DNA of 64,000 bases from Candidatus Woesearchaeota archaeon (GTDB lineage: Archaea; Nanobdellota; Nanobdellia; Woesearchaeales; UBA9642), in the NCBI GenBank assembly GCA_003599145.1, contig QZIT01000005.1, positions 320,330 through 384,329 on the forward strand. The letters are read 5' to 3'. This document shows, one piece after another, positions 2,385 through 56,136 of the stretch. How positions within the stretch are numbered: position 1 is the first letter of the stretch; every line of letters begins with the position of its first letter. The notes beneath the pieces were generated by a model. It saw nothing but the letters and a program-made list of their open reading frames with translations, ran no database searches and was not told the origin of the DNA. Made by a program: the position numbers and the translations under genes.

Positions 2385-2526
2385 GCAAAAGGGAAAGTAA
2401 AGCGAATATATAAACTTTTCTATTTGATTATATACTTTATACTAATATATATACTTTAATAAAAATGTTTATATCCCCAATAGTGTTCACTACTATCAGA
2501 TGAGAAATCATCGGAGAGGACGAAAC

Positions 2527-3588
2527 ATGAATACCCTAAAACACATGAAACTAGGAATCATTTATGGATTAACGGCATTAACGTTGGCAACAACGGCAAA
2601 TGCAACAGGCATTTTTTCAGACATTAAATACAAAGTCAATGATGACCAAACTGCTGAAACAAGGCAAAGACTTAACTTAGATTTGCCTCTAGGCCTTGAA
2701 ATAAAGGCATTTGCAGACACTGACTATGACAGCGAAGGTAGCGTTACAGAAAAGACTGCAGGCGGATGGATTGCCAAAGGAACAAGATTAGATCATGATA
2801 GTTCCTTGACTATTGACAACAAAACCTACTTGAAAATAAAGCAGAACGTTGCAGATACAAAAAAGAACTCAGTAATTGTAGGAACTGATTTTAACTTTGC
2901 AACACCAACCTTTAACGCCTATGTGCTTCCTGTATGGAGCGAAATCGCAGACAATGAAGTGCAAAACAACTTCATGATGGGCATTGCAACGCAGAAAATA
3001 GGAACAGGTTCCTTGGAAAGCGGAGTCATCTATGAATGGAACAAACATAGTGATGACAATAAAGGTGCCTATGTCATTGCAAAGACAGAAAAGCTTGGTG
3101 TTAGCATGAGCGAGTATGTCTATGACCCTATTGTCAGTGTTGCTGCTGGATGGCAGAATGAAAACGTTGGATTTATGGGATGGACAGAACATAACTACGA
3201 CAATAAAGACTTTAAATTGACTGCATTTGCTGCACAGCATCCTGCAAGCGTTGTAGGAAAAGAAGGAATGAACACCTTAGCAAACGTGTTTTGCATCACC
3301 CAGCCACCTGAATTAGATCCTTACTTGACCAGCACAGGAAGAAAATCCCTTGATGGCCTTGCAGGAAAGCTTGTGATAGAAAAGGTTAGCGATGCATGGA
3401 ACATAACACCAGAAGTTGCCTATAACGCAGGAGACCTTGCTATCATGATGGGCTCAGTGCTGAAAGACGGCGAGTATGATGCCATGACTGCTGCAGTGAA
3501 CTACAGCAAAGGACCAGTGATGGTTGAAGTCAAAGGCGACACGCACAAGAACTTTACACTGTACACTAAAGTTACAGGAACTTTTTAA
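2527..3588 (+). CDS. secreted beta-rich protein, unknown function (signal peptide; C-terminal amphipathic strand ending in Phe)
   Basis: The ORF opens at 2500, but GGAGAGG sits 5 nt upstream of the ATG at 2527. The N-terminus 'MKLGIIYGLTALTLATTANATG' reads as a signal peptide. The body is Gly/Asp/Tyr/Thr-rich and ends '...FTLYTKVTGTF'. Confidence 0.5.
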   Translation: MNTLKHMKLGIIYGLTALTLATTANATGIFSDIKYKVNDDQTAETRQRLNLDLPLGLEIKAFADTDYDSEGSVTEKTAGGWIAKGTRLDHDSSLTIDNKTYLKIKQNVADTKKNSVIVGTDFNFATPTFNAYVLPVWSEIADNEVQNNFMMGIATQKIGTGSLESGVIYEWNKHSDDNKGAYVIAKTEKLGVSMSEYVYDPIVSVAAGWQNENVGFMGWTEHNYDNKDFKLTAFAAQHPASVVGKEGMNTLANVFCITQPPELDPYLTSTGRKSLDGLAGKLVIEKVSDAWNITPEVAYNAGDLAIMMGSVLKDGEYDAMTAAVNYSKGPVMVEVKGDTHKNFTLYTKVTGTF

Positions 3589-3610
3589 TTTTTTTATTTT
3601 TGGTGAGAAT

Positions 3611-4312
3611 ATGAAAGAAGAAAAAAAACCGATATTACTCGAAGGAGATTTAGGAAACGCTGTTGCTGAAGCATATCGAAGAAGAGTTCAGGAAGAGTTT
3701 CCCAACCATGCAGTATTGACAGGTTTAAAATGGGAAGGTGGAACTGTTCGGTATGCAAATACCTATTCCCTTGTTTTGCTAAATCAAGTTTTGCACGATT
3801 TCGGATACCAAGTAGCAACATTAAGAGATATTGAAGACGCCATGGACTCTCAAAACTCTCTTGTTCCTCAAATATTCACCTATCAAACAGGTATTGTTCT
3901 CACTCGAGAACCATCAAAATCCGCACGGTATCTTGTTCGAGAACTCGGATCTCGAATAGGCGTTTCCTATGGACAAAAATTAGAGCTTCCTCTTATGATT
4001 TCTCTCCAAGATTTGGAGCTTATTGATGATAAAAGAGCAATGTTTGGCTTAACCTTTTACCTCCCTTCATATGCAAAGGTCATACCTGCTCCTGAATTCA
4101 ATGAAAAGTATCATCTACATAAGTTTGGGGATGCAGATCGTAATGGACTGCCTGTTCTCGATTCTGATGGTAACCGAACATTACACCTTAAACCAGCGAA
4201 AAAAACAGGTTTGTATAAAGTAGAAGTTCCAAACAAAGATGCATTGTTTGCAAATGACGAACGATTGGAACATGCTCAAAGAAATTATTGTGTAGCTGTG
4301 GTGAAAAAATGA
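3611..4312 (+). CDS. unknown-family protein, paralog 1 of 3 tandem copies
   Basis: The ATG at 3611 follows GGTGAGA. The track start at 3524 lies inside the upstream gene. Motifs LLEGDLG, RYANTYSLVLLN, QTGIVL, GLPVLD..G.RTLH.KP, TGLYKV and FANDERLEHA are shared with the next two ORFs. The stop overlaps the next start (ATGA). Confidence 0.6.
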   Translation: MKEEKKPILLEGDLGNAVAEAYRRRVQEEFPNHAVLTGLKWEGGTVRYANTYSLVLLNQVLHDFGYQVATLRDIEDAMDSQNSLVPQIFTYQTGIVLTREPSKSARYLVRELGSRIGVSYGQKLELPLMISLQDLELIDDKRAMFGLTFYLPSYAKVIPAPEFNEKYHLHKFGDADRNGLPVLDSDGNRTLHLKPAKKTGLYKVEVPNKDALFANDERLEHAQRNYCVAVVKK

Positions 4313-5022
4313 AAAAAGAAAAAAAACCGATATTACTGGAAGGAGATTTAGGGAAAACTGCGTTTAACATTTATTATAGGAAAGCGCAGTATGAATATGG
4401 AGATAATCCCTTATTAAAAGGATTGCAGATTGATAATAGCTCAGGCATTGTCAGAAACGCCAATACGTATGCACTGGCATTACTGAATGAAGTTTTAAGT
4501 ACAACTGAACTTAGTAGTTATAGATTAGTTAGACAAGGGGAAGTTGAAGAGCTCATAAGAGGTTCAGAAATGCCTTTTGTCATGAATATTCAAACAGGGA
4601 TTTTAGTAACCAGCAATCAAAGATCTGAAAGCGAACATCATTTGAGGGGAGCTCTTGAAGAGGGAATAAGAGGTCATTTTTCTTACGTTCAACTACCTCC
4701 TGTAGTAATTCCTATGCCTGAAGTGTTTTTAGGCATCGATAAAGAATCACCAACTGGCATGACTTTGAAACATTCACCCGGAGAAGGCTTTGTCATTGCA
4801 CCACAATTGGATATGCACTATGATGGATATACGTTTAAAGAGTTTGACAGTCGAGGATTGCCTTTGCTAGATATGCACGGAAAAAGAATACTTCATACGT
4901 GCCCTAAGGCTTACACAGGACTCTACAAAGTGCATGTTGAAAACGCACATAGTTTGTATGCGAATGACCACAGATTAGAACATGCAGAAAGAGACAACGT
5001 TGTTCTCGTGGTGAAAAGATGA
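4309..5022 (+). CDS. unknown-family protein, paralog 2 of 3
   Basis: The start at 4309 overlaps the upstream stop by ATGA. Its first ~45 nt are nearly identical to nt 3611-3655 of paralog 1 (atgaaa[g/a]aagaaaaaaaaccgatattact[c/g]gaaggagatttagg). The protein carries the same conserved motifs. Confidence 0.6.
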   Translation: MKKEKKPILLEGDLGKTAFNIYYRKAQYEYGDNPLLKGLQIDNSSGIVRNANTYALALLNEVLSTTELSSYRLVRQGEVEELIRGSEMPFVMNIQTGILVTSNQRSESEHHLRGALEEGIRGHFSYVQLPPVVIPMPEVFLGIDKESPTGMTLKHSPGEGFVIAPQLDMHYDGYTFKEFDSRGLPLLDMHGKRILHTCPKAYTGLYKVHVENAHSLYANDHRLEHAERDNVVLVVKR

Positions 5023-5732
5023 TAATCAACGCTAACTTATTGGAAGGAGAGCTAGGACAAAAAGTTTTTGAAGAGTATCAAAGAACAGTTCAAAATGAAT
5101 TTCCAAATAGAGTAGTATTGGAAAGTCTAGCTTATGAACAAGGCATTGTCAGAAACGCAAACACGTACTCACTTATCTTGCTGAATAGAGTTCTCGAAAA
5201 CTTCGGATATCAACTGGCAAACTTAAGGGATGTAGAAGACGTCGGTAGTAACATAAGTCTTCCATCAATGTTCAGATACCAAACAGGCCTCGTTATAAAT
5301 CCATCAAAGGCAAAGCAATATTTGACAAAAGATCTTATATCTCAAATCCGCGTTCCCGATGGACGAAAATTACAAGGGCCTATAATGATTTCATTAAGAG
5401 ATTTAGAGCTCAAACTGGATGGCAAAGCGAGTTTTGCTTTGGCATTTGCTCTCAGCCCCTTTGCAAGTACCTTTGCAAGCATCATACCTGCTCCTGAACT
5501 CGATGAAAAATATGACGGATATACGTTCTGGAAAACAGACAGCAATGGATTGCCTGTTCTCAACATGATGGGAAGAAGAACATTGCATACCAAACCAATT
5601 GGAGAAAGCACAGGTTTGTATAAAGTAGAAAGCCAAATATCCGAAGCAGACAATAAAGCACAATTATTTGCAAATGAAAGCAGATTAGAATATGCATGGA
5701 ATAATCCTGCTGTTGCGGTGATACGAAAATGA
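5019..5732 (+). CDS. unknown-family protein, paralog 3 of 3
   Basis: Joined to both neighbours by ATGA overlaps. Conserved motifs are LLEGELG, RNANTYSLILLN, YQTGLV, GLPVLNMMGRRTLHTKP, TGLYKV and FANESRLEYA. Confidence 0.6.
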   Translation: MIINANLLEGELGQKVFEEYQRTVQNEFPNRVVLESLAYEQGIVRNANTYSLILLNRVLENFGYQLANLRDVEDVGSNISLPSMFRYQTGLVINPSKAKQYLTKDLISQIRVPDGRKLQGPIMISLRDLELKLDGKASFALAFALSPFASTFASIIPAPELDEKYDGYTFWKTDSNGLPVLNMMGRRTLHTKPIGESTGLYKVESQISEADNKAQLFANESRLEYAWNNPAVAVIRK

Positions 5733-6355
5733 CGCTTTATAAGAAAAAGACGCTTTACGATAACGTACTATTCTTAGAAAAACTAGAGAGACGCATAGAT
5801 GAATCTCTGCATTTTTTAGCTACAAACGGATATGCTATAGAGCGCAATCCTATTGATATAAAAGAAGCATCAGATAAGTTTTTAGCAGCCACTTTGCATT
5901 TTGGTGAGAACAGCGTTGTCTCTCGATTGCGCTCTGGAGAAAGGCTGGATAACATTGTCGATGAGTATATTGGTGAAAGAAAGTACTGGCATTTATTATT
6001 TCACAAAAAAGAAAGGCAAGCGTATAATGCAAAGGTTGATGAGCTTTCAGCCATTATTGATGCTGAAGACCTGAAAGTCACGACGCTTTCTCCTATTGTT
6101 ATGGGAGTTGTAGGGCTTGTTACCTATGGCTTGGGCGCGCTAGTGGGTACCAGTTTAATTGCTGAATATGCATCAAAATATGAACAAGGAAATGCTCAAC
6201 CTATAGACACTTTAGAGACAGGATTAAGCTTGGCAATACTCGTTGGCGTTTTGTACTATGCGACGAAAACCATACTCAAGGACCTATCAAGCAACAAACC
6301 TATACGAGAAAAATTACAACCGCAAATAGATAAAGTGCAGGAATATCTACCATAA
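5729..6355 (+). CDS. small membrane protein (two predicted TM helices), co-transcribed with the paralog triplet
   Basis: The start overlaps the upstream stop (ATGA). The hydrophobic stretches LSPIVMGVVGLVTYGLGALVGTSLIAEYA and LSLAILVGVLYYATKTIL look like TM helices. Confidence 0.5.
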   Translation: MTLYKKKTLYDNVLFLEKLERRIDESLHFLATNGYAIERNPIDIKEASDKFLAATLHFGENSVVSRLRSGERLDNIVDEYIGERKYWHLLFHKKERQAYNAKVDELSAIIDAEDLKVTTLSPIVMGVVGLVTYGLGALVGTSLIAEYASKYEQGNAQPIDTLETGLSLAILVGVLYYATKTILKDLSSNKPIREKLQPQIDKVQEYLP

Positions 6356-6396: not shown

Positions 6397-8709
6397 ATGC
6401 ACGGTTTCATTGTTTATCCAACCTATAGAATTATCGATAACAAAGCGTTTGTGTATCTATTTGGACGGTTGGAAAACGGTGAGAGCTTTCTTACCATTAA
6501 TGAATGCAAGCCGTATTTCTACATAAAAAAACTAGATTTGGAAAAAGCAAAAACGTTGGCGAAATTTGAAACAGAAGAAAATCATTTTAAGAATTTTGAA
6601 GGAGAAGAAGTAATCAAAATTATCCTGACAGTTACGTCTGACGTTCCCATAACAAGAGATTTGCTTCAAAGCAAAGACATACCGACCTATGAAGCAGACA
6701 TCAGGTTTATTTACAGGTTCATGATAGATAATGACATCAAGGGAAGCATGAAAATAACAGGAGACTACAAAAAAGGAGACTTTGTCGACAGAATCTATGA
6801 AAATCCAAAACTATCCGAAAGTGATTTTTTTCCTGAATTGAAAATGCTTGCCATCGATATTGAAACCGATGCAAAGCAAAAGGAAATTTACTGCATTTCT
6901 CTGTATACAAAAACGCATCAGGAAGTATTGATCCACAGCAATAAAAAATTGAACAACGCAACATCCTTTGCAACAGAAAAAGAATTATTAGAAACCTTCA
7001 TCAAAAAAATAAAAGAACTTGACCCTGATGTCATCACCGGATGGAACGTCATTCAGTTCGACATAAGAGTTTTAGAGGAAAAATGCAAAAAATACAATAT
7101 TCCCTTTGTTCTCGGCAGAACAAGAGAGACTGCAACGTTAAAAATTTTCAATGATTTTTTGAGAGAGTCAAAAGCAGATATTCCCGGAAGAATGGTCTTG
7201 GATGGCATTCACTTAATTAAGACATCATTCATGCAGTTAAAAGACTACACACTAGATAATGCGGCGTCAGAAATTCTCGGAGAGAAAAAATTAATAGGAA
7301 AAAAAGACAAGGGAAAAGAAATTGAAGATGCCTTTAGAAACAACCAGCAAAAACTGGTTGATTACAATTTAAAAGATTCAGAATTAGTCTATAATATCCT
7401 TGAAAAAACAGGAGTTGTCAAACTAACCATACAACGTTCCTTATTAACAGGACTGCAGTTAGATAAAGTCAATGCAAGCGTTGCAAGTCTAGATAATTTG
7501 TATCTGAGAGAAACGAGAAAAAGAAAAATTGTCTGCAACAACAGCCAGTTTTCTGAAAAAGAAAAACCCATCACAGGCGGTTTTGTCAGGGACAGCATGC
7601 CTGGCTTATATGAGCATATTGTCGTGCTTGATTTTAAAAGCCTGTATCCCAGCGTCATGAGAACATTCAATATTGACCCGTACAGTTTTGTTCATGAAAA
7701 ACCAAAACAGGTTGACAAAAAAAAGTTTGTTGTTGCTCCCAATGGCGCCGTATTCAAAAATGAAGAGGGCATTTTGCCGTCGTTAATTCAAGAACTATGG
7801 GCGCAAAGAGAAAAAGCAAGAAAGCAGAAAAATGAGCTTGCGCGATACGCCATAAAAATTCTGATGAACAGTTTTTTTGGAGTTCTTGCAAATCCATCGT
7901 GCAGGTTTTTCAGCATGGAAATCTCCAATGCAATAACCCATTGCTCACAGATGGTGATTAAATTAACTGCAGAAAAAATAAAAGAAAAAGGATATGTCGT
8001 TATTTATGGAGATACTGATTCTGTTTTTATAGATACAGAAGCAAAGAACGACAAAGAAGCAGAAAACATTGGAAAAGAATTGCAAGACTATATCAATAAT
8101 TTTTATCAGGACTATATCAAGAAAGAATACCATAGAGAAAGCTATTTAGAACTGCAATTGGATAAAGTATTTTTACATTTTCTCATGCCCAGAATACGGG
8201 GAAGTGAAGTCGGAGCAAAAAAAAGATACGCAGGATTGATTATGGAAAACGAAAAAGAAAAGCTTGTTTTTACAGGGCTAGAATCAAAACGCTCTGACTG
8301 GACAGCATTGAGCAAAAAATTTCAGGAAGAACTGTTATTAAAAATTTTCAAGAAAGAAAAATACGACGCATATATACGAACATTTATTGACGACTTGAAA
8401 AAAGGAAAATACGATGATTTGCTTATCTATAGAAAAAAAATAAACAAGCCATTGTCTGCCTATGTCAAAACAACTCCTCCGCATGTCAAGGCAGCAAGAA
8501 AATTAAAGGAAATACATTCTAACGTCATCATGTATATGATGACCACCGACGGACCTGAACCCATACAACAAATAAAGCATCAGATTGATTATGAGCATTA
8601 CCTGGACAAGCAGATAAAGCCAATAGCAGATGCCATTTTAACCTTTATCGATAAAAGCTTTGAAGATGTCATGAAGAACAGCAAGCAAACAAGCTTAAGC
8701 GGGTTTTAA
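6397..8709 (+). CDS. polB: DNA polymerase, family B (archaeal PolB), no inteins
   Basis: The N-terminus resembles archaeal PolB. Exonuclease motif regions are present (DIET..., YNLKDSELVY). Polymerase motifs A (DFKSLYPSVM), KKRYAGL and C (YGDTDSVF) are present. At 770 aa the protein is uninterrupted. Confidence 0.9.
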   Translation: MHGFIVYPTYRIIDNKAFVYLFGRLENGESFLTINECKPYFYIKKLDLEKAKTLAKFETEENHFKNFEGEEVIKIILTVTSDVPITRDLLQSKDIPTYEADIRFIYRFMIDNDIKGSMKITGDYKKGDFVDRIYENPKLSESDFFPELKMLAIDIETDAKQKEIYCISLYTKTHQEVLIHSNKKLNNATSFATEKELLETFIKKIKELDPDVITGWNVIQFDIRVLEEKCKKYNIPFVLGRTRETATLKIFNDFLRESKADIPGRMVLDGIHLIKTSFMQLKDYTLDNAASEILGEKKLIGKKDKGKEIEDAFRNNQQKLVDYNLKDSELVYNILEKTGVVKLTIQRSLLTGLQLDKVNASVASLDNLYLRETRKRKIVCNNSQFSEKEKPITGGFVRDSMPGLYEHIVVLDFKSLYPSVMRTFNIDPYSFVHEKPKQVDKKKFVVAPNGAVFKNEEGILPSLIQELWAQREKARKQKNELARYAIKILMNSFFGVLANPSCRFFSMEISNAITHCSQMVIKLTAEKIKEKGYVVIYGDTDSVFIDTEAKNDKEAENIGKELQDYINNFYQDYIKKEYHRESYLELQLDKVFLHFLMPRIRGSEVGAKKRYAGLIMENEKEKLVFTGLESKRSDWTALSKKFQEELLLKIFKKEKYDAYIRTFIDDLKKGKYDDLLIYRKKINKPLSAYVKTTPPHVKAARKLKEIHSNVIMYMMTTDGPEPIQQIKHQIDYEHYLDKQIKPIADAILTFIDKSFEDVMKNSKQTSLSGF

Positions 8710-11700
8710 GTTGCCTATATACTCGTGCACGGCATCAATCGCCTCAACAAGAGAAGGTTTTCTCGCTGCAGATTTCTGTAAAAACTGATAAAGATCCCGC
8801 AAGGTGCAGGTATTATCTTTTAAACTTAGAGGAGTGATGAATTTCTGTTGCAAGGCGCTCGTAAAAAAAACCATGTCAATGCCAAAAACATTTTGCACCA
8901 TTCTCTGGTCAACAACCGTATCTCCAACATCTCCCTGCAAAGCAGCAGCATATCCGTTGCCATCCTGTGCTTTTTTAATTATTTTTCCTGTGCCAGGCTT
9001 AGTGTCTGTTGCGGGAATGGCAAAGCTTTCATCAGGCACTTTAGAATAATCAGGAATTATTACTTTTTTTTCATGAGCAGGAAGAACCGTTGGATGCGCG
9101 AGTTTATATGCATTAACTGCAGTAGTGCAAGCCGTCGCCAACTGCTTCAGCGCTTTGTCTTTCATACCCGAAGCGTTGCCTGAAAATAAATAATCCAATG
9201 CAGCCTTGAGTGTAGTAGTTCCATCGTTTTCTACATACAAGCGTCCTGTTGCTTTTGCGCTTTGAATAACAGGCAAGGGAAGGTTGCTTAATGTGCTAAG
9301 CTCTTTCATCGATAAAACAGTATCCAAAGTATACGTCGGCTGTACCACGGGCGTTGGAGATTCTGGTGCAGATAAAACGGGTGTTGCAGCAAGTTGCTCC
9401 AACGTCTGTAATCTTTCACCTAGAACGCTTAGAATTTTTGGATTTGCATCAGAAACCTGTTGAGCATAAGCAAACAATGCAGGAGAATCTTTGCACAGGG
9501 AAGTTAAAAAATCCAGTTTTGTAGAAGTAGAAAAACCGTGAACAAGATAGCTAAGAAAATCGGAAAGGAGAACGCCGTCTTTATGGCGCGGCAATGCCTT
9601 TGCGATTAAAAGATTATCAATATATCTTCCTCGGTGACTGGCGATGTCTGCAAGGTCAGCAACGCGCATAACTGTTTCAGGAGTATAGAGAGAAGGTTTA
9701 ACAGCAACATCTGTTTTTTCTGTATCTAAAGCACGCGATGTATCTATTTCAATAGGGTCTTGTTCTTTCAAGAAATCATCAACTGACTGTACATTTCTCC
9801 GCAAAGTTGCCAATGCAGTCTCTTTTTTTTGTGTTTGCCTGCCTGAAGTTAAATAACCAAGGTAATCCTGTAAAGTAACGCTTTTATTACTTTCTTGGGA
9901 TTTTAAACGTCCACCTGCAACTGCCTGAGATAAAGCAGAATAGTTTGCTCCAGAAAGCCGAGAAATCTCAGCCAAGGATAAGGATGAATCTAACGTATAA
10001 ACTGGAGGGTTAGGGGGCGTTGCAGGGATATCTGCTGGAGGAACATCAGCAGGAGGTGTATCTATGGGAGTTGCAGGAACATCTGATGGAACAGCTAACG
10101 TGTTTTCATCTGAAACAACCGATGCACTTTTTGAAATAACATATGCCTCTGCACCTGCAACATTCTTTCTTATAACGGCTAGTGCTCTTTTTTTTGCTTG
10201 AAATTGAGGGCCTGTAAGGAGAGAATCAATATAATCGCTCATAAGCACTGCACTTCCTTGCGTTTTAAGAGTGCCCTGATTTATACGATGACTAACGGCA
10301 CTATCCGTAACCTGCACTAACTCAGCAAGCTCATGAACAGAAAGCAAAGAATCTAAGGTGTATTCTGTTTCAGCAAAACTAGAGGAGTGTGGCGTTTCAA
10401 CAGATGACTCTTCTGTCTCTACTGCAACTGTTTTTGTAACATATTCTTGAAATTGCGGAGCATTCTTGCAAATGGCATCAAGAAGTTGTTTTTTTAAAGA
10501 AGTTGCCCTTCCTCCTTTCAAATAATCCAAAACTTCTCTTACTGCTAAAGCACTGCCATCGCGAAAAGGCAAATCAGCGACGTGAGGTAAATTCTTAAAG
10601 TATTGCGCCTTGTATCCAGAAAGTTCTGCTAATTCAGTAGAAATAAGAACAGAGTCGAGCGTGTACGCTTTTGCTTTTGTTAACACATCAGTTCCTAATG
10701 GCGGTAAAGGAACTGTTTCTCCATCTGCTAAAAACGGAGTTATCAAATCAGGAACTATTCCTTTTAACGCAGCAATGGCATTTCTCTTTGACTCGCTTGT
10801 TCTTCCTGAAGTAAGATAGATTAAACCATCTTCAAGGGTTAGCAACATATCTCCCTCTTTTTTCTCCGTATTAAGGTTTCCCTTTCGAGCTGACTTGTAT
10901 AACGCATCAGAGCTTATTCCCGTTAAACTCGCAAATGCATCAATAGTAAATGCTGATTTCAACGTGTAGACTGGCTTATCTATCTGTTCTGCTGTCGTTT
11001 CTACAGTCGCTCCTTTGTCGAGAGCAGTTCCTGCAAGATGCGTTGCAACACAGGGAACATTGTTCATCAAATTATGCAAAGCATCTGCTTTAGACTTGGT
11101 GTTCATTCCTGAAGTTAAATAACCAATATAATCAGAAAGCTTTACCTCAGTATTCACATTTTTGCCTGTTCCTTCAAGACGATGAGTTGTTACTGCGGCT
11201 AGTATAGTTTCCCACGATACGTCTGCAAGTTTTGCAAGCGTTCTGACGTCAAGTACTGTATCCATCGCATATTTTGAAGGGTCTGGCAAAAGATACTCAT
11301 CTATATTTTGTGTTTTTCTAAACGTCTCAACGAGCTCAGGCATTTCTTTATGCAAGCATTCAAGGAAATCACTTTTATGCTGCGTTATTCTTCCTGTTGT
11401 CAAATAGGTTAAAAACTCAAAAAGCATGATTCCTTGGTTATGAAGAGTTAGCCTTCTCGCATGAATGACATTGTCAAAATACTTTGGCTCAACGCCGAGA
11501 AGGTCTGCTAAAGCAGTAACTTTCATATACTGTCTTAAATCATTTGGAATATCTGAATGAACAGTCGATAAAGAATGTTTCTCTCCTCTAAAAACGGCAT
11601 CAAGAACAACAGAGATTCCTTTTTCTTTCAATGCATCATCAAAAGGTTTTCCGTCTAAAAGTGAAACAGCATGAATCTTCTCAAACATGCCATCGGTATT

Positions 11701-12246
11701 TAAAAGCAAATAGGCTTCTGGAATGTCTGCAAATACAATCGCTTTTCTGTTTTTTCCAATAATTTTTTTGATAATGCCTTCAACGCCTTGTCTTAGCGTC
11801 GTATATTCTATTAAAAAGTCATCATTTTGATCCCAAACATTTCTCAGTGATTCATAAAAATATGCCTGTGCATGAACCTGCTGTTCTGAGAAAAATAACG
11901 AAGTAGTATTTTTCACTGCCGCAGTTGAGAGTCTAACCACGTCTTTTTCAGTGCTGAATGTTAAAATTCCAGAAACATCCTCCTCAGTACTTGCCGTAAA
12001 CCCATAATAATGGGGAACAACTATCTGCATAGGCTGTACTTTTTTTCGTTTATCTTCTTTTTTATCTCCTGATGCAACGATGCCCTGTGGCTGTAAAAAT
12101 CCTTGAAAGCTTCTTGCAAGTTCCTCTGCAAAGCTTAAATGCCTCTGCTCTTCAAAGGCTCTAAAAACATCTTGCTTTACTGTTGCTATGATTGCCTGCA
12201 AATTCATCGTTGCCGAGAACCAATGATTGTATTTAAACGTTTCCAT
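8695..12246 (-). CDS. giant cytoplasmic protein with ~9 tandem HTH-like repeat modules (novel architecture)
   Basis: There is no signal peptide. Repeats of ~75-90 aa open with '(V/Y)YTLDS.LS..ELA.LSG' and end with 'L.DYL.YLTSG'. The opening looks like an excisionase/MerR-type HTH. Example copies begin at protein positions ~405, 480, 560, 640, 730, 815 and 890. A Pro-rich linker 'PSDVPATPIDTPPADVPPADIPATPPNPP' interrupts the array. The 3' end overlaps polB by 15 nt (convergent). Confidence 0.6.
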   Translation of the reverse strand: METFKYNHWFSATMNLQAIIATVKQDVFRAFEEQRHLSFAEELARSFQGFLQPQGIVASGDKKEDKRKKVQPMQIVVPHYYGFTASTEEDVSGILTFSTEKDVVRLSTAAVKNTTSLFFSEQQVHAQAYFYESLRNVWDQNDDFLIEYTTLRQGVEGIIKKIIGKNRKAIVFADIPEAYLLLNTDGMFEKIHAVSLLDGKPFDDALKEKGISVVLDAVFRGEKHSLSTVHSDIPNDLRQYMKVTALADLLGVEPKYFDNVIHARRLTLHNQGIMLFEFLTYLTTGRITQHKSDFLECLHKEMPELVETFRKTQNIDEYLLPDPSKYAMDTVLDVRTLAKLADVSWETILAAVTTHRLEGTGKNVNTEVKLSDYIGYLTSGMNTKSKADALHNLMNNVPCVATHLAGTALDKGATVETTAEQIDKPVYTLKSAFTIDAFASLTGISSDALYKSARKGNLNTEKKEGDMLLTLEDGLIYLTSGRTSESKRNAIAALKGIVPDLITPFLADGETVPLPPLGTDVLTKAKAYTLDSVLISTELAELSGYKAQYFKNLPHVADLPFRDGSALAVREVLDYLKGGRATSLKKQLLDAICKNAPQFQEYVTKTVAVETEESSVETPHSSSFAETEYTLDSLLSVHELAELVQVTDSAVSHRINQGTLKTQGSAVLMSDYIDSLLTGPQFQAKKRALAVIRKNVAGAEAYVISKSASVVSDENTLAVPSDVPATPIDTPPADVPPADIPATPPNPPVYTLDSSLSLAEISRLSGANYSALSQAVAGGRLKSQESNKSVTLQDYLGYLTSGRQTQKKETALATLRRNVQSVDDFLKEQDPIEIDTSRALDTEKTDVAVKPSLYTPETVMRVADLADIASHRGRYIDNLLIAKALPRHKDGVLLSDFLSYLVHGFSTSTKLDFLTSLCKDSPALFAYAQQVSDANPKILSVLGERLQTLEQLAATPVLSAPESPTPVVQPTYTLDTVLSMKELSTLSNLPLPVIQSAKATGRLYVENDGTTTLKAALDYLFSGNASGMKDKALKQLATACTTAVNAYKLAHPTVLPAHEKKVIIPDYSKVPDESFAIPATDTKPGTGKIIKKAQDGNGYAAALQGDVGDTVVDQRMVQNVFGIDMVFFTSALQQKFITPLSLKDNTCTLRDLYQFLQKSAARKPSLVEAIDAVHEYIGNLKPA

Positions 12247-12312
12247 TAGAAAGAAAAAACAAAAGACATCCGATGGAAAGGCATATAAAGAGAAAATTAA
12301 TTCCCTTACTGA

Positions 12313-13644
12313 ATGGGGATTGAATTTTTAGTCATGCCTGAAACCGTTCAAGATACAGCACAGCAATTGCGGCATAGTATAGTTGGCCATCCGCTAAAAA
12401 AAGCAAAACAAGTTCTTGATTGTGTTATGGAAACACCTAGCGATAATGGATTTCCTCATGGATTGCATAAAGTTGGCTTTGTATGGGTCGACTGGAGAAG
12501 AGGAACCTATACGTTAAGCATTGTTGACTTTGAAGAAAAAGAACGCAATGTGCATGCCTATACCACTTGCGACAACAAAAGCCTTTCACAGGTCCTGCAA
12601 AGCGAATTTCCAAGAAACAAAAAAAATGCAATTCTTGCTCATTCTCCAAGCTTAAGCGTTGTCGTGAACACTGCATACTATGAAGAAGACCCTGAACAGA
12701 TAGCCCATATATTATCTCTTCCTTTGGCTTCAAGAAAAGTCATAGAATTCTATCATACATTGAATACTGTTTTAAGATTATATCCTGTAGCAAACGAAGC
12801 ACAAGTGAGAATATTGCTTGAGCAAAACACAACAGAAGACATTGCAATAACTGACCAGTTCATGAGCATTGTTGATGAGTTTAATCAAAAGTTCTCTAAC
12901 GAAGGAAAAGGCGTGCAGATTCAGCTAAAGGAAAAAGACAAGCTGGGAAAAAAAGACTTGGATGATGCCATTGTAAGAGCGTATGATTTTGTTGTGTGCA
13001 TAGAAGGTGTAAGCAAAAATACGTTTTGCTCGCAGGCAGAAGAATTAGATGGTTTTAAACATCACTATTTTGGATTGCATGACCATCCGCCTTCAAGGTT
13101 TACACAGCCAAAAGGAGGCTTTTCGACTCTGTTTTATGATACAGAAAGACTACAAATAAAAGGATTGGGAGGAAATGCAGTTGAAATTATTCTCCCTGAA
13201 AGAGTTACCCAATTAGGCATGATGTACGCAGTTGATCCTACTTCAAGAATCATAGAATTGTTGGCGCATTATGCGATAAAATTTGAAAATAAGCAAAGCC
13301 ATGAGGCAAAACACGCTGTATCTGCAAAAGAGCAGGGAGTTCCTCAACTTGAGCCTTCAAGGTTTGTCAACGCTATTTGCGCAGCTATGGGAACGAGCTA
13401 CAATCGTCATGCTACTGACTATGTGCCGAAGCCTGTCTATGTTGGCGTTAATGCAGATGGTGATGAAATTTCTGCATGGTTCATGAAGAGAATAGATAGA
13501 ACAAAACGAGGCCAGAGCTTTACCCAAAGAACTATAGGAGAAATAGCAAGATTAAGGGCAGATGCACTGAGAATACCTCAATATGGTCAAGCATATTATC
13601 CAGACAAACGCTTTGATAAAAGAGCAAGATTAGTGTATGGCTAG
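12313..13644 (+). CDS. hypothetical protein (443 aa)
   Basis: A long ORF with coding-like composition, transcribed divergently from the giant repeat protein. I recognise no motif. Confidence 0.45.
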   Translation: MGIEFLVMPETVQDTAQQLRHSIVGHPLKKAKQVLDCVMETPSDNGFPHGLHKVGFVWVDWRRGTYTLSIVDFEEKERNVHAYTTCDNKSLSQVLQSEFPRNKKNAILAHSPSLSVVVNTAYYEEDPEQIAHILSLPLASRKVIEFYHTLNTVLRLYPVANEAQVRILLEQNTTEDIAITDQFMSIVDEFNQKFSNEGKGVQIQLKEKDKLGKKDLDDAIVRAYDFVVCIEGVSKNTFCSQAEELDGFKHHYFGLHDHPPSRFTQPKGGFSTLFYDTERLQIKGLGGNAVEIILPERVTQLGMMYAVDPTSRIIELLAHYAIKFENKQSHEAKHAVSAKEQGVPQLEPSRFVNAICAAMGTSYNRHATDYVPKPVYVGVNADGDEISAWFMKRIDRTKRGQSFTQRTIGEIARLRADALRIPQYGQAYYPDKRFDKRARLVYG

Positions 13645-13913
13645 CTTTTTTCTATGAATCCTGACTCTGGCTCTGCCAATAAGCCGTCGTCTTTCAATTT
13701 ATCAACAGTAGAAAGCACTTCTGCTTCGCTCATGCCCTGATTCTTTGCTTCAACAATCAAATGCTCAACTTGAATTTTCTTCTTTTTTCCTGTAGTCAAA
13801 TCATCCATCAATGAAAGAATTTTTATTTTAGAATCTACTTCTGCTTCCCTTGAAACTAAGGAAGCCATTTTATTTTGAACTTTCAATAATTCTTCAAAGT
13901 CTGATTCATTCAT
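13641..13913 (-). CDS. small acidic hypothetical protein (90 aa), possibly winged-helix-like
   Basis: Converges on the previous gene with a 4-nt overlap. It is rich in Glu/Lys/Leu. Confidence 0.35.
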   Translation of the reverse strand: MNESDFEELLKVQNKMASLVSREAEVDSKIKILSLMDDLTTGKKKKIQVEHLIVEAKNQGMSEAEVLSTVDKLKDDGLLAEPESGFIEKS

Positions 13914-14050: not shown

Positions 14051-17000
14051 ATGGGTAGAGTGAAGAGGCATCATTTTTTACGAATAGGTCTAGTTGCTGT
14101 ATTTTTCATCATTCTCGGCTCTATGATTATCCATCTTGCAGACCAGCCAAGAGTAGGAAGGCCTATAGGATATGCTCCGACTTCCTTCAATTATTTCTTT
14201 CCGCTTACAGAAGGAACTGGCTTAACAATAACGGACACCACAACATCGCTGACAGGCTATTTGGAAACAAGCATCGAGCGAGACAGAACTCCTGATTGGA
14301 CCAAGATAAATCCAACAGAGTATGCATTGAATTTTTCTTATGACTCCAGCGGATTAGGAAGCGTCAGCAGATGGGTAAGAATTCCCTATCAATCAAATCT
14401 GGAGCCTCAAACATTCACGATAGAAGCGTGGGTGAGGCCAGAAGTCAACAACGGACAAGCACAGTACATCATTGTCAAGGATGGTACAAGCGCAACAGAC
14501 CAGAACACGGGTTATCGTTTATGGTATCAGCATCCAAATTACTGTTTTCAGGTAAAAAAAAGCTCAGCATGGTCTGCTGTCCAATGCAACTCAGGCTCAG
14601 GGCTAAATAACTGGGACCATGTTGCTGCAAGCTATCAGCAGTCATCAGGAACATTGGCAGTGTATGTTAACGGAAACAGCCTTTCATCAGTTACAGGCGC
14701 AGGAGCAATACAGTACAGCCAAGGAGATTTATTTATTGGCTCGCCAGGAAGAGAAACAAATCCTCAGTATAATTTTCAAGGCTTAATAGCCGATGTAGTC
14801 ATCACCAATTCAGTCAGCACATCATCAAATCCTTTTAACTTAAAGCCTAATATCGTAACAACAGGAAACTCTCCTTCAGGATTAACGCCTGATGCTATCT
14901 TTACCTGTGCATTTGATTCGAACATTCCTGGTTCTATCGAACTGCATACGGACAGAACAGGCAGCATGCAAAAAGAAAAAAGTTTCGATTATACTCAAGT
15001 TGATTATGCAAGTCTTCCTAATAACGGACAAGTGAGCTTTACGCTTACTAATCTTAATCAGGGAACGTATCAGTGGAACTGCATAGCCTATGATTTAAAT
15101 GGAAACTCCTATCAAGGCACACAAAAATCAGTTTCCATGCAGCTTGCAAGAGATTTAATAACCACTCCTAAAAATCCTGATGATAAAGAGATTTTTGAAA
15201 CAACGTTAAGTTCATTGCCAACAGCATTTCAATGCGAAGTAACTTCAACGCAGATAAAACAAGTTGAATTATGGCATAGCAATGGTGGTTGGAGCAGGAA
15301 AGGTCTGAACACCACGTTTCCTCCTGGAGTGATGTACAATATTGTTCCTACAATCAGTCAAAGCACCTATGCAAATTATCTATTGTCAGGATTTGAAGCA
15401 AATAAAGCAGCTGATGGAAATGATGCAACACTATGGGATTCAGGCACAAGAACCATATCCAATAATGGAATGATATGGGAGATAAATTTAACACAGCCCT
15501 ATACGATAAATAGATCGGTAATAAAGTGGTCTGGTCACAGCAGCTTTTCAGCAGGAAGTTGCGGTTCTAATACTGCTCAATTTATGTTCTTGAATGGTGT
15601 AAACACAAGATCTCAATTTGATGTAAATTACGCTGTAGGTGATATTATAACAGACGTTGCTGTAAATAAGCAAGGGATTAACCACATAGTAATTTTTCAG
15701 GGTACGGGGACGAGTTGCCAATTTAGAGGAACCATAAAAGAAGTTGAACTTTATTCCCAAGACTTCACTACAGGTGGAGAGGTAAACAATTGGTTAATTA
15801 ATTTTTCTTACAGCCAGCCTGAAGGAACACACACCTGGACCTGTAATGGTCTTACTATCAGCGATGCCAGACCTGTAATTACTGAAAACAGAACCGTTAT
15901 TGTTTCAAGAATACCCAGTGTCACGTTAGGAAATGTGTATGCAGGCGCTACGCTGATTAGTGGACCTTCGTATCAGACCTATCAGAGAAACCTGCGCTTC
16001 GAGTGCAGTGCAACAGGAAGCAATTTCTTAAGAAACATGACCTTGTATACAGATACAGGAGGAACATTCACGGCAAGAGAAAAGAAAACCTATAGTGGCG
16101 GCACTGCGTCTTTCACTCTTAGTGATTTAAATCCGGGAAGCTATCAATGGAATTGCTTGGCAGAAAATGCCTTTGGCACAACTGCATTTTCATCTGCAGA
16201 CAAAACAATAACTATTCTTCAGCCAACGATTGTTGCAAGATTTGACAATCCTGTTGATGGATTTACCACCACAGATAATAATGTAACATTGCAATGCAAC
16301 GGAACAGGCCATGCACAAAGCCCATTAGTAAACATGACGTTTTATGTGAAAAACACAACAGGCAATTGGACAGCAAATAAATTTCCTTATACGTCAGGAA
16401 GATTTTTATACAATCTCACAGGATTACAAACAGGAAGCTATGAATGGTATTGTGAAGTGCAAAACAGTTTTGGAGATAGTAATAGAACAGCAACCAATAG
16501 AACGTTTAACATTCAAACGCAACCGCAATACACTATTTGCCAAAATAATGCATGTGTTACCGTAAACGGCATCGGAACAAATCAGTGCAGTGCAGATGCA
16601 AATTGCCAGAGTTTATTCGGAGTTAACCTTATAAGCCCAACAGACGGATACACCAGCTACCTTGCCAATGCCAATTTTCAAATGAACTGCTCAGCAACAG
16701 GCAATACTAATGATTCTTTAAGTCTGTACACTAACCTGACAGGAACATGGCAAGAAACACAAACAAAACAATACACATCTGGAATTGCAACATTCAATCT
16801 AACATCTGTACCAGTTGGAGTTTATGTATGGAATTGCAGAGTAAATGACACGAACGGAAACTACAAATTCAATGAAACTAACAAAACATTCGCTGTACAA
16901 ACTCCCATGCATTTAGAATGCAGAAATAACGCGTGTGTTTCCGTCAACGGAGAAGGAACAAATCAATGCAACACAGATGCAAACTGTCAAAATATTATGG

Positions 17001-19777
17001 GAATAAATTTAATTGAACCTGCAAACGGCATAACCACAACCAATCAAAATGTACAATTGAATTGCAGTGCAACAGGAAACAACCTGCAATCTATAACCCT
17101 CTACACCAACGCATCAGGATGGACAGCAAAAGCAACCAATGCTTACACCGTACCAGGAACAAAAACAACCTTTGCACAAACATTAACGCCAGGAACCTAT
17201 GCATGGAATTGTCAAGTAAATGACAGCTTTAACAATAGCAAGTTCAATGAAACCAACAAAACAGTAACCATACAAACCGCAACGCATTTGGAATGCAGAA
17301 ATAACGCTTGCGTTTCTGTAGCAGGAATAGGAACAAATCAATGCAGTATTGATGCAAATTGCCAGAGTTTATTCGGAGTTAACCTTATAAGCCCTGCAAC
17401 AGGATACACCACGACAAATTCTTCTGTAGAAATAACCTGCAGCGCAACAGGAAACGATACCTTAAGCCTCTACACCAACAGAACAGGAACATGGCAAGAA
17501 ACATCAATCATAAAGCCATACACAGGAATACCCTATATCTTTATTCTTAGTTCTTTGACAGTTGGAAATTATGCGTGGAACTGCAGAGTAAATGATACTT
17601 CTGGAAATTTTAACTTTAACCAGACGAATAGAACATTCACTATTCAACAGGCTGCACAAACACACTTAATCTGCCAGAATAATGCTTGTGTTTCTATCAA
17701 TGGAGCAGGAACAAATGAATGTACAGTGAATGCAAATTGCACCAATTTATTCACCGTTAATCTCCTTGAACCTGCATCTGCCACCACGATTGCCCAGCAG
17801 AATACAACGCTCAACTGCAGCGCAACAGGAAACAACCTGCAAACCATGACATTATACACCAGCGCAGGAGGTTACGGGCCAAAAGCAACTGTTCCTTATA
17901 TAACATCAGGAAGCAAGGCAAGCTTCCCTCAAACGTTCACTTCCGGAAGTTATCAGTGGAATTGTCGAGTGCAAGATTTGAATAATAATACGCAATTTGC
18001 CTCTGCAAACAGAACAATAATCATCAACCTTACTCAGCCGCAATATGGAGTTTGCCAGAACAATGCGTGTGTTACCATGAATGGCAGCGGAACAGACCAG
18101 TGTTTAAGCAATCCTTCTGTTTGTGCAAGCTTTGTTCCTGTACAACTGATAAGCCCTGCGAATAATACGCAAACAGTGAATACCACCGTAATCTTGCAAT
18201 GCAACACAACGTCTGCAAACAGGCAAAACATCACGTTATATACTAATAGAACAGGAACATGGCAGAGAGAATTGACCTATGTGTTTACCGGAACAGAAAC
18301 GCCTTCATTTACGATTAATGCTGCAATTGGACGATATGCATGGAACTGCTTAGCTTATGACACTAATAGAAATTATGGATGGAGTGTGAATAGAACATTT
18401 GAAGTAATCAATAATCCTGTTCAGTTATTTATTAAGGACACGTCTGAAAATGAAACTATTTACACAAATACCAACATCACGTTTTATGCAAATTACACCA
18501 ACGGAACAACACCTATTACAGGAGCAGCATGCAACGTTAACGTGCTCTCAACAAATTATGCAATGGTGTATAGTGCAACACTAAGGCAATATGCGTATTC
18601 AAGAATTATCAATCAGCCAGGAGACCATGATTATAATATAACCTGTTCTTTGTCAGGCTATCCAACAAGGAGCGTTGTAAAGACAGCAACCATTATGACT
18701 ATCTGCGGAGATAGCTCTTGCAGCCAAGGCGAAACCTGCAGTTCTTGCTCTGCTGACTGCGGCCAGTGCAACGACGATAATGATGCTGGAGGAGGTGGCG
18801 GCGGTGGAGGAGGCGGTGCTGGAGCTCCAAAGATAAGAACGCTGGAATTAAACATCACCAATGCAGATATAGAAAAAATAGTCATTGTCTATAATGCATC
18901 AACCTTATTAAAAGTGAACGTTACTGAAAGGAATACTAATCCCTACAGTTCATTCGAAGGCATTGTCTATAAATATTTCAATATAACACCTAGCTTTACC
19001 AACGGCATCATCAATACAAGCATTTTCTTCAGAGTCAGAAACAGCTGGATAACCCAAAACAACATCAACGATGCAACGGTAAAAATGAAAAAGTACAATG
19101 CAAGCTGGATTACTTTGACAACACAAAAATTAAGTTCAGATAACAGCTATACGCATTACAAGGCAGTTACCAACAAATTCAGCATTTTTGCAATGTATGG
19201 ATTTGCAAACCAGAATGATACCGTAGCTCCCCCTCAAACACATTTAGCCTGTGTAGGCAATGCATGCATTTCAGTTTCAGGTTCTGGACAAAACCAATGC
19301 GCAACCAATGCAGATTGCGTTCCATTGCCACCACCTCAAAATGAAACACCAGGCCAAAATTTTACTGAACCTCCAGGAGAATCCTGGTTCATAGACAATA
19401 TTTTGTGGATCGTTATTGGATTTATTGTTTTAGCAGGTATTGGCATTGCGGGATTTTTCTTTATGAAGCCTCATGAAGAAGTTGACCCTGGAAAAATAGA
19501 ATCATTGCGGTCTTATGTTTACTCATGCAGAGCTCAGGGATACAGCAATGAGGAAATTGAAAAAAGATTAGTTAACAGCGGATGGGATAAAAAAACAGTA
19601 AAGCAGATTATTCCGAAAACATCAGTAAGCGAGAAATCAATCCCTGCAGAAAAACTGGAAGAAATCAGGGAGTTTATCAACACCAGCAAAAAACAGGGAT
19701 ACAATAAAAAACAAATTAAAGAAATGCTTTCAAGCCAAGGATGGGCAAAGAAAGATATTGATGATATTGTAAAGTGA
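14051..19777 (+). CDS. giant cell-surface protein: N-terminal signal anchor, LamG/concanavalin-like domain, ~5-8 tandem Ig-like modules separated by Cys-knot linkers, poly-Gly linker, C-terminal TM anchor and cytoplasmic tail
   Basis: The N-terminal hydrophobic segment is RIGLVAVFFIILGSMIIHLA. 'FTIEAWVRP...NWDHVAASY...LAVYVNGN' matches the LamG jelly-roll pattern. 'C.NNACV.VNG.GTN(Q/E)C..DANCQ' recurs at about nt 16536, 16915, 17293, 17670 and 18050, with a variant at 19245. Dozens of N-x-S/T sequons are present. Gly codons run at 18787-18830. The TM helix is WIVIGFIVLAGIGIAGFFF at ~19410-19470. The tail repeats the motif QGY(S/N)..(I/Q)(E/I)K.L...GW.KK.(V/I) twice. Confidence 0.8.
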   Translation: MGRVKRHHFLRIGLVAVFFIILGSMIIHLADQPRVGRPIGYAPTSFNYFFPLTEGTGLTITDTTTSLTGYLETSIERDRTPDWTKINPTEYALNFSYDSSGLGSVSRWVRIPYQSNLEPQTFTIEAWVRPEVNNGQAQYIIVKDGTSATDQNTGYRLWYQHPNYCFQVKKSSAWSAVQCNSGSGLNNWDHVAASYQQSSGTLAVYVNGNSLSSVTGAGAIQYSQGDLFIGSPGRETNPQYNFQGLIADVVITNSVSTSSNPFNLKPNIVTTGNSPSGLTPDAIFTCAFDSNIPGSIELHTDRTGSMQKEKSFDYTQVDYASLPNNGQVSFTLTNLNQGTYQWNCIAYDLNGNSYQGTQKSVSMQLARDLITTPKNPDDKEIFETTLSSLPTAFQCEVTSTQIKQVELWHSNGGWSRKGLNTTFPPGVMYNIVPTISQSTYANYLLSGFEANKAADGNDATLWDSGTRTISNNGMIWEINLTQPYTINRSVIKWSGHSSFSAGSCGSNTAQFMFLNGVNTRSQFDVNYAVGDIITDVAVNKQGINHIVIFQGTGTSCQFRGTIKEVELYSQDFTTGGEVNNWLINFSYSQPEGTHTWTCNGLTISDARPVITENRTVIVSRIPSVTLGNVYAGATLISGPSYQTYQRNLRFECSATGSNFLRNMTLYTDTGGTFTAREKKTYSGGTASFTLSDLNPGSYQWNCLAENAFGTTAFSSADKTITILQPTIVARFDNPVDGFTTTDNNVTLQCNGTGHAQSPLVNMTFYVKNTTGNWTANKFPYTSGRFLYNLTGLQTGSYEWYCEVQNSFGDSNRTATNRTFNIQTQPQYTICQNNACVTVNGIGTNQCSADANCQSLFGVNLISPTDGYTSYLANANFQMNCSATGNTNDSLSLYTNLTGTWQETQTKQYTSGIATFNLTSVPVGVYVWNCRVNDTNGNYKFNETNKTFAVQTPMHLECRNNACVSVNGEGTNQCNTDANCQNIMGINLIEPANGITTTNQNVQLNCSATGNNLQSITLYTNASGWTAKATNAYTVPGTKTTFAQTLTPGTYAWNCQVNDSFNNSKFNETNKTVTIQTATHLECRNNACVSVAGIGTNQCSIDANCQSLFGVNLISPATGYTTTNSSVEITCSATGNDTLSLYTNRTGTWQETSIIKPYTGIPYIFILSSLTVGNYAWNCRVNDTSGNFNFNQTNRTFTIQQAAQTHLICQNNACVSINGAGTNECTVNANCTNLFTVNLLEPASATTIAQQNTTLNCSATGNNLQTMTLYTSAGGYGPKATVPYITSGSKASFPQTFTSGSYQWNCRVQDLNNNTQFASANRTIIINLTQPQYGVCQNNACVTMNGSGTDQCLSNPSVCASFVPVQLISPANNTQTVNTTVILQCNTTSANRQNITLYTNRTGTWQRELTYVFTGTETPSFTINAAIGRYAWNCLAYDTNRNYGWSVNRTFEVINNPVQLFIKDTSENETIYTNTNITFYANYTNGTTPITGAACNVNVLSTNYAMVYSATLRQYAYSRIINQPGDHDYNITCSLSGYPTRSVVKTATIMTICGDSSCSQGETCSSCSADCGQCNDDNDAGGGGGGGGGGAGAPKIRTLELNITNADIEKIVIVYNASTLLKVNVTERNTNPYSSFEGIVYKYFNITPSFTNGIINTSIFFRVRNSWITQNNINDATVKMKKYNASWITLTTQKLSSDNSYTHYKAVTNKFSIFAMYGFANQNDTVAPPQTHLACVGNACISVSGSGQNQCATNADCVPLPPPQNETPGQNFTEPPGESWFIDNILWIVIGFIVLAGIGIAGFFFMKPHEEVDPGKIESLRSYVYSCRAQGYSNEEIEKRLVNSGWDKKTVKQIIPKTSVSEKSIPAEKLEEIREFINTSKKQGYNKKQIKEMLSSQGWAKKDIDDIVK
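16536..18430 (+). repeat. intragenic tandem repeat of ~378 nt (~126 aa), about five copies, inside the surface-protein gene
   Basis: The Cys-knot motif recurs every ~378-380 nt. A 44-nt segment gatgcaaattgccagagtttattcggagttaaccttataagccc is identical at ~16596-16639 and ~17351-17394. Confidence 0.7.
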
Positions 19778-56128: not shown

Positions 56129-56136
56129 TTTTCACC

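Follow-up and report, generated by a model that had tools for sequence, protein, structure and literature searches.

An orphan archaeal protein with eight tandem modules of predicted excisionase-type winged-helix fold, encoded next to polB

What kind of protein is encoded by an open reading frame (ORF) of 1183 amino acids (aa) that runs convergently into the polymerase gene polB of an archaeon, and what could be the role of its long array of repeats? This question was raised by a stretch of 64,000 nucleotides (positions 320,330 to 384,329 of contig QZIT01000005.1, assembly GCA_003599145.1), referred to here as the window, which is ordinary chromosomal DNA of a DPANN archaeon (Candidatus Woesearchaeota; genome GC 38-40%). 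The ORF, hereafter the target, is a real, lineage-specific gene of this Candidatus Woesearchaeota; its codon-position GC (0.51/0.39/0.29) is typical of coding sequence in the window and its GC at third codon positions (GC3) is unremarkable there (z = -1.0). Its product is a soluble protein that consists of an N-terminal region (some 235 aa), eight modules in tandem (each of about 80 aa) and a C-terminal tail. From structural modelling and profile comparison each module is best described as a winged helix of the excisionase/HTH_17 type (beta-alpha-alpha-beta-beta-alpha) followed by a private two-helix extension. The initial annotation, made from the sequence and its ORFs, had described a protein with neither a membrane segment nor a signal peptide. 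The best 19-residue Kyte-Doolittle mean is only 1.26, hence no membrane segment is to be expected; the lack of a signal peptide was judged solely from the non-hydrophobic N-terminus. The same annotation had noted a convergent overlap of 15 nt with polB, and this was verified on the sequence.

The repeat array was delimited with a hidden Markov model (HMM) built from the three most obvious copies (R3, R4 and R6), which recovered five further copies at 17.1-42.8 bits (independent E-value, i-E, 3e-7 to 6e-13); when the target protein was shuffled 300 times, no domain scored above 4.5 bits, and the six-frame translation of the window contained no other match to the repeat better than E=0.19. The eight modules span aa 240-1047 with a period of 86-120 residues, so that the array starts at about residue 240 and not near residue 300 as had been suggested. 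Their pairwise identity of 17-38% is slightly lower than the 30-40% estimated earlier by eye, and only L35, L53, G56 and K62 (R6 numbering) are invariant in all copies. The consensus of the module reads YTLDSvL.v.ELA.L.G............GRL.......V.L.D.L.YLTSGR.T..K..AL..L.kNvP. Eight or nine modules had been anticipated, of which eight are significant. The ninth copy, at aa ~1110-1175, can be aligned in register by MAFFT and hhalign, but the hhalign P-value is 0.057 with a probability of 0.9%, and the copy was not reported by hmmsearch with the repeat HMM; the C-terminal tail may therefore harbour a decayed ninth module. The N-terminal 235 aa have no similarity to the repeat module, and for both the N-terminal and the C-terminal regions no Pfam match at E<=10 and no PDB sequence match was obtained.

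The modules are separated by seven linkers of 15-45 residues which are acidic, of low complexity, rich in Pro, Thr, Val and Glu, and probably flexible. The longest of them, between R5 and R6, is the Pro-rich linker that had been recognised earlier as splitting the array. A basic stretch had also been proposed to follow the YLTSG motif; it is real but mild, with a net charge of 0 to +5 in the module tails and one invariant Lys. At the DNA level, no repeats were detected beyond short chance matches. In the absence of near-identical DNA repeats the duplications must be old, in agreement with the initial annotation, and an assembler cannot have produced the ORF by collapsing or expanding near-identical units.

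The fold of the module was predicted by running AlphaFold2 on R6 with the eight paralogous copies as the alignment, which gave a model with a mean predicted local distance difference test score (pLDDT) of 86 and a predicted template-modelling score (pTM) of 0.72. The modelled topology is E-H-H-E-E-H-H-H, that is, a strand, two helices, a two-stranded hairpin and a helix followed by two extra helices (the elements include E9-11, H12-19, H23-31, E43-45 and H46-54). Each modelled module ends in two short helices of 13 and 8 residues, after which the low-complexity linker begins, and the most conserved motif of the module, YLTSGR.T..K..AL, opens this two-helix extension. The structural neighbours of the model are mostly DNA binders, many of them with structures solved on DNA. 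They include a small terminase subunit (6.7), BldC (6.6), RppC, TnrA, CvkR, RdfS, NmlR, GlnR, TipAN and TorI, and further Tn916 Xis, an AlpA-type excisionase, TraN and the N-terminus of TniQ. Foldseek searches of the PDB and of viral models listed the same families with non-significant E-values, as expected for a query of just 80 residues. The full-length model from the single sequence was unusable (pLDDT 34).

At the level of sequence, the relation of the modules to known families was found to be distant but consistent. On the whole protein, Pfam HTH_17 (PF12728) reached 13.4 of the 27 bits set as its cut-off (E 0.095) and TIGR01764 (excise, excisionase family DNA-binding protein) scored 17.7 against 28.8 (E 0.0034), and single repeats gave no HTH_17 match in Pfam. 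The PHROG family of MerR-like transcriptional regulators matched the target at 3.9e-6 and the PADLOC mad1 model at E 1.4e-10, the latter in its helix-turn-helix (HTH) part only. These whole-protein E-values arise because weak matches in several modules add up. R5 is the best-matching stretch for all four models and scores 13.3 bits with an HMM made from the HTH_17 modules of P0015, a metagenomic protein whose HTH_17 modules are bona fide (Pfam HTH_17 E 8e-98). Moreover, the PHROG families of Cox-like excisionases and of excisionases match aa 431-466, in R3, weakly.

Profile-to-profile comparison gave a cleaner answer. The alignment of the eight repeats matched that of the eight HTH_17 modules of P0015 in hhalign with 95.9% probability (E 6e-9) over 48 columns, which cover the whole winged helix, and in the reciprocal direction the HMM of the P0015 modules gave the target 21.3 bits as compared to <=4.7 bits in 300 shuffles. 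A classical MerR profile was prepared from the DNA-binding domains of CueR, MerR, ZntR, SoxR and BmrR and was confirmed against their PDB entries; it reached a probability of 52% (E 1.4e-4) over 29 columns of the HTH only. Hence, of the HTH_17/Xis/MerR-type module that had been proposed, the HTH_17/Xis part is upheld at the profile level, while the curated thresholds are missed and classical MerR proteins are more distant. The possibility that the repeats might not fold as an HTH had been raised as well; the winged-helix model at pLDDT 86 and the HTH_17 profile match point the other way. Two further candidates were rejected. An assignment of the YLTSGR.T..K loop to the 'wing 2' of MerR proteins (G-F-S-L motif) is unsupported, as the profile alignment stops after the HTH, and a PDB match to a designed armadillo-repeat protein (4rzp) was traced to a chance pattern, 'LAxxxG....I..hh..G.L', summed over the repeats.

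Homologues of the target were sought on a large scale. With the whole protein, a word-indexed search of 5.8 billion proteins gave no homologue, nothing was obtained from JGI metagenome contigs, IMG/VR or an exact-sequence contig look-up, and tblastn against phages and plasmids returned no match. An exhaustive HMMER search with the repeat profile over 1.84 billion cluster representatives yielded 39 matches at E<=1e-3, with best E-values of 1e-13 to 5e-4. These matches sum 3-9 short stretches each, mostly at profile positions 10-38, which correspond to the HTH core. Those inspected were other repeat proteins (mainly tandem-HTH arrays, with a few unrelated repeat proteins) or false positives, and the matches lacked the N-terminal region, the long linkers and the two helices of the YLTSGR..K tail. 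As none of them carries the full module, the whole module is unique so far, and the target protein is classed by these searches as an orphan.

Among the matches, bacterial metagenomic tandem HTH_17 arrays were present with eight (P0015), seven (P0005), five (P0039) and four (P0037) modules. The array loci were placed at 6451-8322 of L007, 8001-9338 of L008 and L009, and 6001-7281 of L005 and L006. The array in L007 adjoins ArdC/MPTase-PolyVal and AcrVA2-like genes. The one in L008/L009 lies near genes for ParA, toxin-antitoxin pairs, a Y-family polymerase, a topoisomerase and a relaxase, a setting that resembles the leading region of a conjugative element. A third bacterial array has an ordinary chromosomal setting. 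In the literature searched, no description of tandem HTH_17 arrays was found. Other matches, eukaryote-like (P0001-P0004 and P0008), carry an N-terminal Mos1-transposase HTH followed by 5-9 modules of about 60 aa of the HTH_24/AsnC type; P0001 is a fungal protein (Conidiobolus coronatus KXN71883.1), and these proteins apparently form a separate and undescribed kind of HTH array.

How does the target compare with the known systems that use the same fold? It shares the core fold of about 50 aa with the excisionase/HTH_17 proteins (lambda-like and mycobacteriophage Xis, Tn916 Xis, TorI, AlpA, P2 Cox and RdfS), to which its modules are homologous at the profile level, and P2 Cox, like the target module, has two extra helices after the core (PMC11963761). 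On the other hand, excisionases are single domains of 50-120 aa which act with an integrase at attachment (att) sites and form non-covalent oligomers, whereas the target has eight modules in 1183 aa, scores below the family cut-offs and does not conserve the basic contact residues. It is not a recombination directionality factor (RDF), as there is no integrase in the ORFs scanned within ~10 kb, there are no att sites, and its size is wrong; both outer ends of the cassette formed by the target and its divergent neighbour overlap the stop codons of conserved genes, which leaves no room for att sites.

BldC of Streptomyces, a MerR-like protein, consists of a winged HTH (wHTH) alone and binds direct repeats as head-to-tail multimers of variable length, thereby distorting the DNA (PMC5859096). 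Such multimerisation is the behaviour that a tethered array would mimic. However, BldC is a bacterial monomer of 68 residues that oligomerises in a DNA-dependent manner, whereas in the target the array is covalent, the linkers are long and an N-terminal region is added; not being a stand-alone protein of about 70 aa, the target does not belong to the BldC family. Nor is it a classical MerR regulator (CueR, MerR, SoxR, BmrR), since the long coiled-coil dimerisation helix and the effector domain of these proteins are both lacking in the target modules. Published accounts describe lambda Xis, Apl, P2 Cox and RdfS as assembling in the same way at sites one helical turn apart, with superhelical filaments being possible, and extra helices are assigned to filament formation, two C-terminal ones in Cox and one N-terminal one in RdfS (PMC11963761; PMC7498355).

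The metagenomic HTH_17 arrays, of which P0015 has eight modules in 479 aa, resemble the target in having several excisionase-type wHTH per chain, and with eight such modules the target falls within the tandem HTH_17 arrays when these are taken as proteins having at least four. Their modules are nevertheless of about 55-60 aa, abut each other and score above the Pfam HTH_17 threshold; they are bacterial, some of them in conjugative-element settings, and have neither the two-helix YLTSGR..K tail nor long linkers nor the N-terminal region. With neither full-module similarity nor a shared architecture, the target does not appear to be orthologous to them. The eukaryotic Mos1-HTH arrays (such as KXN71883.1) are tandem HTH proteins like the target, but their modules are of the HTH_24/HTH_11/AsnC type and related to transposases, so the likeness is one of convergent architecture and not of orthology. 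Myb and Psq repeat proteins are further eukaryotic multi-HTH arrays. Nor is the target a component of the MADS defence system, whose partner genes are missing here: nine neighbouring proteins were compared with the PADLOC models of that system and gave no match. Overall, the target is set apart from the tandem HTH_17 arrays by the length of its modules, by their tail and linkers, by the N-terminal region, by its size and by the domain of life.

Our tentative proposal, to which we would give slightly less than an even chance, is that the target is a multivalent DNA-binding architectural protein; its DNA binding, binding mode and biological role are all inferred. Free monomers of Xis, Cox, Apl, RdfS and BldC bind weakly and with low specificity, and gain affinity by lining up head-to-tail on direct repeats spaced about one helical turn apart, a line-up which bends or wraps the DNA. 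The target would be the covalent version of such a line-up: its eight units are tethered in one chain, and avidity would take the place of cooperative oligomerisation. The length of the linkers allows adjacent modules to sit on successive turns or to bridge two separate duplexes. The tail of two helices holds the most conserved motif and the invariant Lys and is a candidate for contacts between modules or with the DNA backbone, and the N-terminal region would add another activity, or a function in oligomerisation or targeting. Besides the fold, the mildly basic module tails with their invariant Lys, and the existence elsewhere of covalent HTH_17 arrays of 4-8 modules, are consistent with this proposal. 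A bolder form of it, which we consider rather unlikely, is that the target is the single-chain equivalent of an Xis/BldC/RdfS filament, with 8-9 tethered winged helices that would lie along 8-9 turns of one duplex or bridge duplexes, and so would bend, wrap or condense DNA; it would then be a new kind of archaeal chromatin or architectural protein, amplified in one DPANN lineage and encoded beside the gene of the replicative polymerase.

Several observations weigh against DNA binding. The wHTH cores are near-neutral to acidic (net charge -4 to +1) and the pI of the whole protein is 5.7; in the recognition helix (alpha2) and the wing, no basic or polar contact residue is conserved among the eight copies; and none of the curated HTH family cut-offs is reached by the target. 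In the 64-kb window, no tandem or clustered k-mer arrays, which could be the cognate DNA repeats, were present above the level of shuffles, and no orthologues by which selection on the gene could be gauged were found. These points are mitigated in part. The genuine HTH_17 modules of P0015 span a similar range of net charge (-2 to +3), and variable recognition helices are expected if each module reads a different sequence or DNA shape.

Some of these observations are the strength of the leading alternative, which we regard as doubtful and in which the target is a scaffold or adaptor between proteins: the winged helices would have lost DNA binding and become docking units for partners or for each other, with the linkers as spacers. 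The neutral to acidic module cores and the non-conserved canonical contact residues would fit such a role, as would the position of the conserved residues (YTLDS, YLTSGR and K62) outside the recognition helix. Yet the argument from charge loses force with the similarly charged modules of P0015, and the structural neighbours are overwhelmingly DNA binders, many of them solved on DNA. Moreover, no partner can be identified, the sole candidate being the divergently encoded protein of 443 aa, itself an orphan.

This second orphan leads to the genomic setting, which was studied from polB homologues and their contigs in three Woesearchaeota (polB 62-67% identical); a polB-guided scan of GTDB genomes found nothing. 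In all three relatives, a short variable segment comes after polB, and next to it, on the opposite strand, lies a conserved gene of 90 aa that is 44-66% identical to window 13641..13913 (-). The slot between them (window 8710-13640; L001 7734-8518; L003 12368-14493; L004 12343-12915) holds different cargo in each relative, namely a Macro-domain gene, an ORF of 80 aa, or Fer4, DNA-alkylation-repair (DNA_alkylation) and PHP genes. In the window, the cargo consists of the target and the divergent 443-aa orphan, and it is unique to the source genome among the four compared. The 443-aa ORF found only itself among 5.8 billion proteins, has no Pfam, NCBIfam, PADLOC or PHROG family, no PDB relative and nothing in IMG/VR, and is absent from the three polB relatives. 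The two genes are lineage-specific accessory cargo and not a recognisable mobile element. The intergenic region between them holds an A/T-rich 'ATATAAAG' box and is a putative promoter region.

Such a slot invites the view that the two genes form a cassette of mobile or conflict-island origin, serving defence or anti-defence or being the remnant of an element. The role of the HTH array would then be to coat, mark or sense DNA, which may also be what the arrays in leading regions of bacterial conjugative elements do. We regard this view as unlikely. It draws on the variable cargo of the interval, the orphan status of both genes, the PADLOC mad1 match, and the company of the bacterial HTH_17 arrays, which adjoin ArdC and AcrVA2-like genes (L007) or ParA, toxin-antitoxin and relaxase genes (L008/L009). 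But the ORFs scanned within ~10 kb either side of the target contain no integrase, transposase, relaxase or known defence protein, nor any recombinase or other mobility gene, and no MADS partner is present. The composition of the cassette is native, with GC and GC3 not atypical (z -1.0 and -0.6), and recent horizontal transfer, which had been considered, gains no support from it. The overlapping cassette ends leave no space for att sites, and searches of phage and plasmid collections and of IMG/VR gave no match.

Some winged helices bind RNA. An array in which the winged helices contact structured RNA instead of DNA would account for the missing basic DNA-contact residues, but it is quite improbable, since no RNA binder is among the top structural neighbours and the surroundings contain neither an RNA gene nor an Rfam family, a tRNA-Met at 21973-22047 being the single match in the window. 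That the ORF is a misassembled, fused or non-functional artefact is hardly credible: neither the protein database nor the gene-position index contains the exact protein, although the former does contain both its neighbours, but a single frame repeats one and the same module over more than 800 residues, its hydrophobic core being conserved and its fold confidently predicted, there are no near-identical DNA repeats to mislead an assembler, the codon-position GC is coding-like, and an open frame of 3.5 kb is not expected by chance in AT-rich DNA.

If the target is indeed a multivalent DNA-binding architectural protein, its interest goes beyond this locus. Small winged helices of the Xis/BldC type are textbook examples of weak DNA binders which work by cooperative head-to-tail assembly, and eight of them hard-wired in one chain would show avidity substituting for cooperativity. 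Such a protein could serve as a compact tool for wrapping or bridging DNA. The class of tandem HTH_17 arrays is also represented on conjugative elements of bacteria. Should the target not bind DNA, it would be an orphan of modest interest. In either case it is a large and, as modelled, well-folded repeat protein without a detectable full-module relative among ~15 billion predicted proteins, and this orphan status bears on the origin of new genes in the fast-evolving genomes of DPANN archaea.

The coordinates of the locus are collected in Table 1.

Table 1. Features of the target protein and its immediate surroundings, in window coordinates
Feature	Coordinates	Strand	Remarks
polB	6397..8709	+	product 100% identical to DNA polymerase II [Candidatus Woesearchaeota archaeon]
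Target ORF, 1183 aa	8695..12246	-	ATG at 12246, TAA at 8695-8697
Convergent overlap of 15 nt, 3' end of target ORF and 3' end of polB	8695..8709		checked on sequence
Possible degenerate ninth module, aa 1110-1175	8722..8919	-	not significant; translation checked
Module R8, aa 971-1047	9106..9336	-	non-seed HMM match, 35.0 bits, i-E 8e-13
Module R7, aa 853-928	9463..9690	-	non-seed HMM match, 17.1 bits, i-E 3.1e-7
Module R6, aa 749-827	9766..10002	-	seed copy; modelled copy; translation checked
R5-R6 linker, aa 704-748	10003..10137	-	Pro/Asp/Thr-rich; longest of seven linkers
Module R5, aa 629-703	10138..10362	-	non-seed HMM match, 42.8 bits
Module R4, aa 527-603	10438..10668	-	seed copy
Module R3, aa 426-506	10729..10971	-	seed copy
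Module R2, aa 326-405	11032..11271	-	non-seed HMM match, 35.3 bits, i-E 6.3e-13
Module R1, aa 240-310	11317..11529	-	non-seed HMM match, 33.6 bits, i-E 2.1e-12; translation checked
N-terminal region, aa 1-235	11542..12246	-	mixed alpha/beta by sequence
Divergent intergenic region, 66 bp, between target and 443-aa ORF	12247..12312		read from sequence
443-aa ORF	12313..13644	+	hypothetical protein C4573_03660; divergent from target

The polB of the source genome is in the protein database and not in the gene-position index, and the target is possibly unannotated in the deposited record. The conserved 90-aa protein that closes the slot (13641-13913, minus strand) has a weak similarity to the C-terminal winged helix of archaeal MCM (Pfam E 0.0039) and a weak match to the C-terminal end of a DNA helicase in PHROG (E 0.0034); possibly it is a small winged-helix protein associated with replication. 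Upstream of polB, positions 2500-6355 of the plus strand hold five abutting or overlapping ORFs (362, 262, 244, 237 and 208 aa) for which no Pfam, NCBIfam, PHROG or PADLOC match was found, and only the first of them (362 aa) has a homologue in a relative (L004, 33% identity). The relatives carry other genes at this place, which include an ABC ATPase, Lit, Endo_dU and an AsnC-type regulator.

Beyond the 90-aa gene, positions 14051-19777 of the plus strand encode a protein of 1908 aa that has hydrophobic segments at both termini, a Laminin_G_3 domain and numerous Cys-containing repeats (C.NNACV.V.G.GTN.C...A.C); it is probably a large surface protein, and a counterpart of 1919 aa occupies the same position in the relative L001. 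The window also contains a seryl-tRNA synthetase, a PIN-ATPase-KH protein, RNase HII, one tRNA-Met and a glycogen-metabolism cluster. A paralogous relation among four ORFs (each about 212 aa) at 59.5-63.2 kb was considered and rejected: three of them are unrelated genes, which encode an ArsR/MarR-type HTH protein, RNase HII and a protein of the PIG-L family, and no Pfam match was obtained for the fourth. The glycogen-metabolism cluster (GT4/GT5 synthase, GH57 and the eukaryote-type glycogen synthase PF05693) is located at 54347-59386 of the minus strand. In the relatives, it is found 3-7 kb downstream of polB (L003 15944-21154, L004 14756-17007), whereas in the source genome it lies about 45 kb from polB and on the opposite strand, which indicates a local rearrangement.

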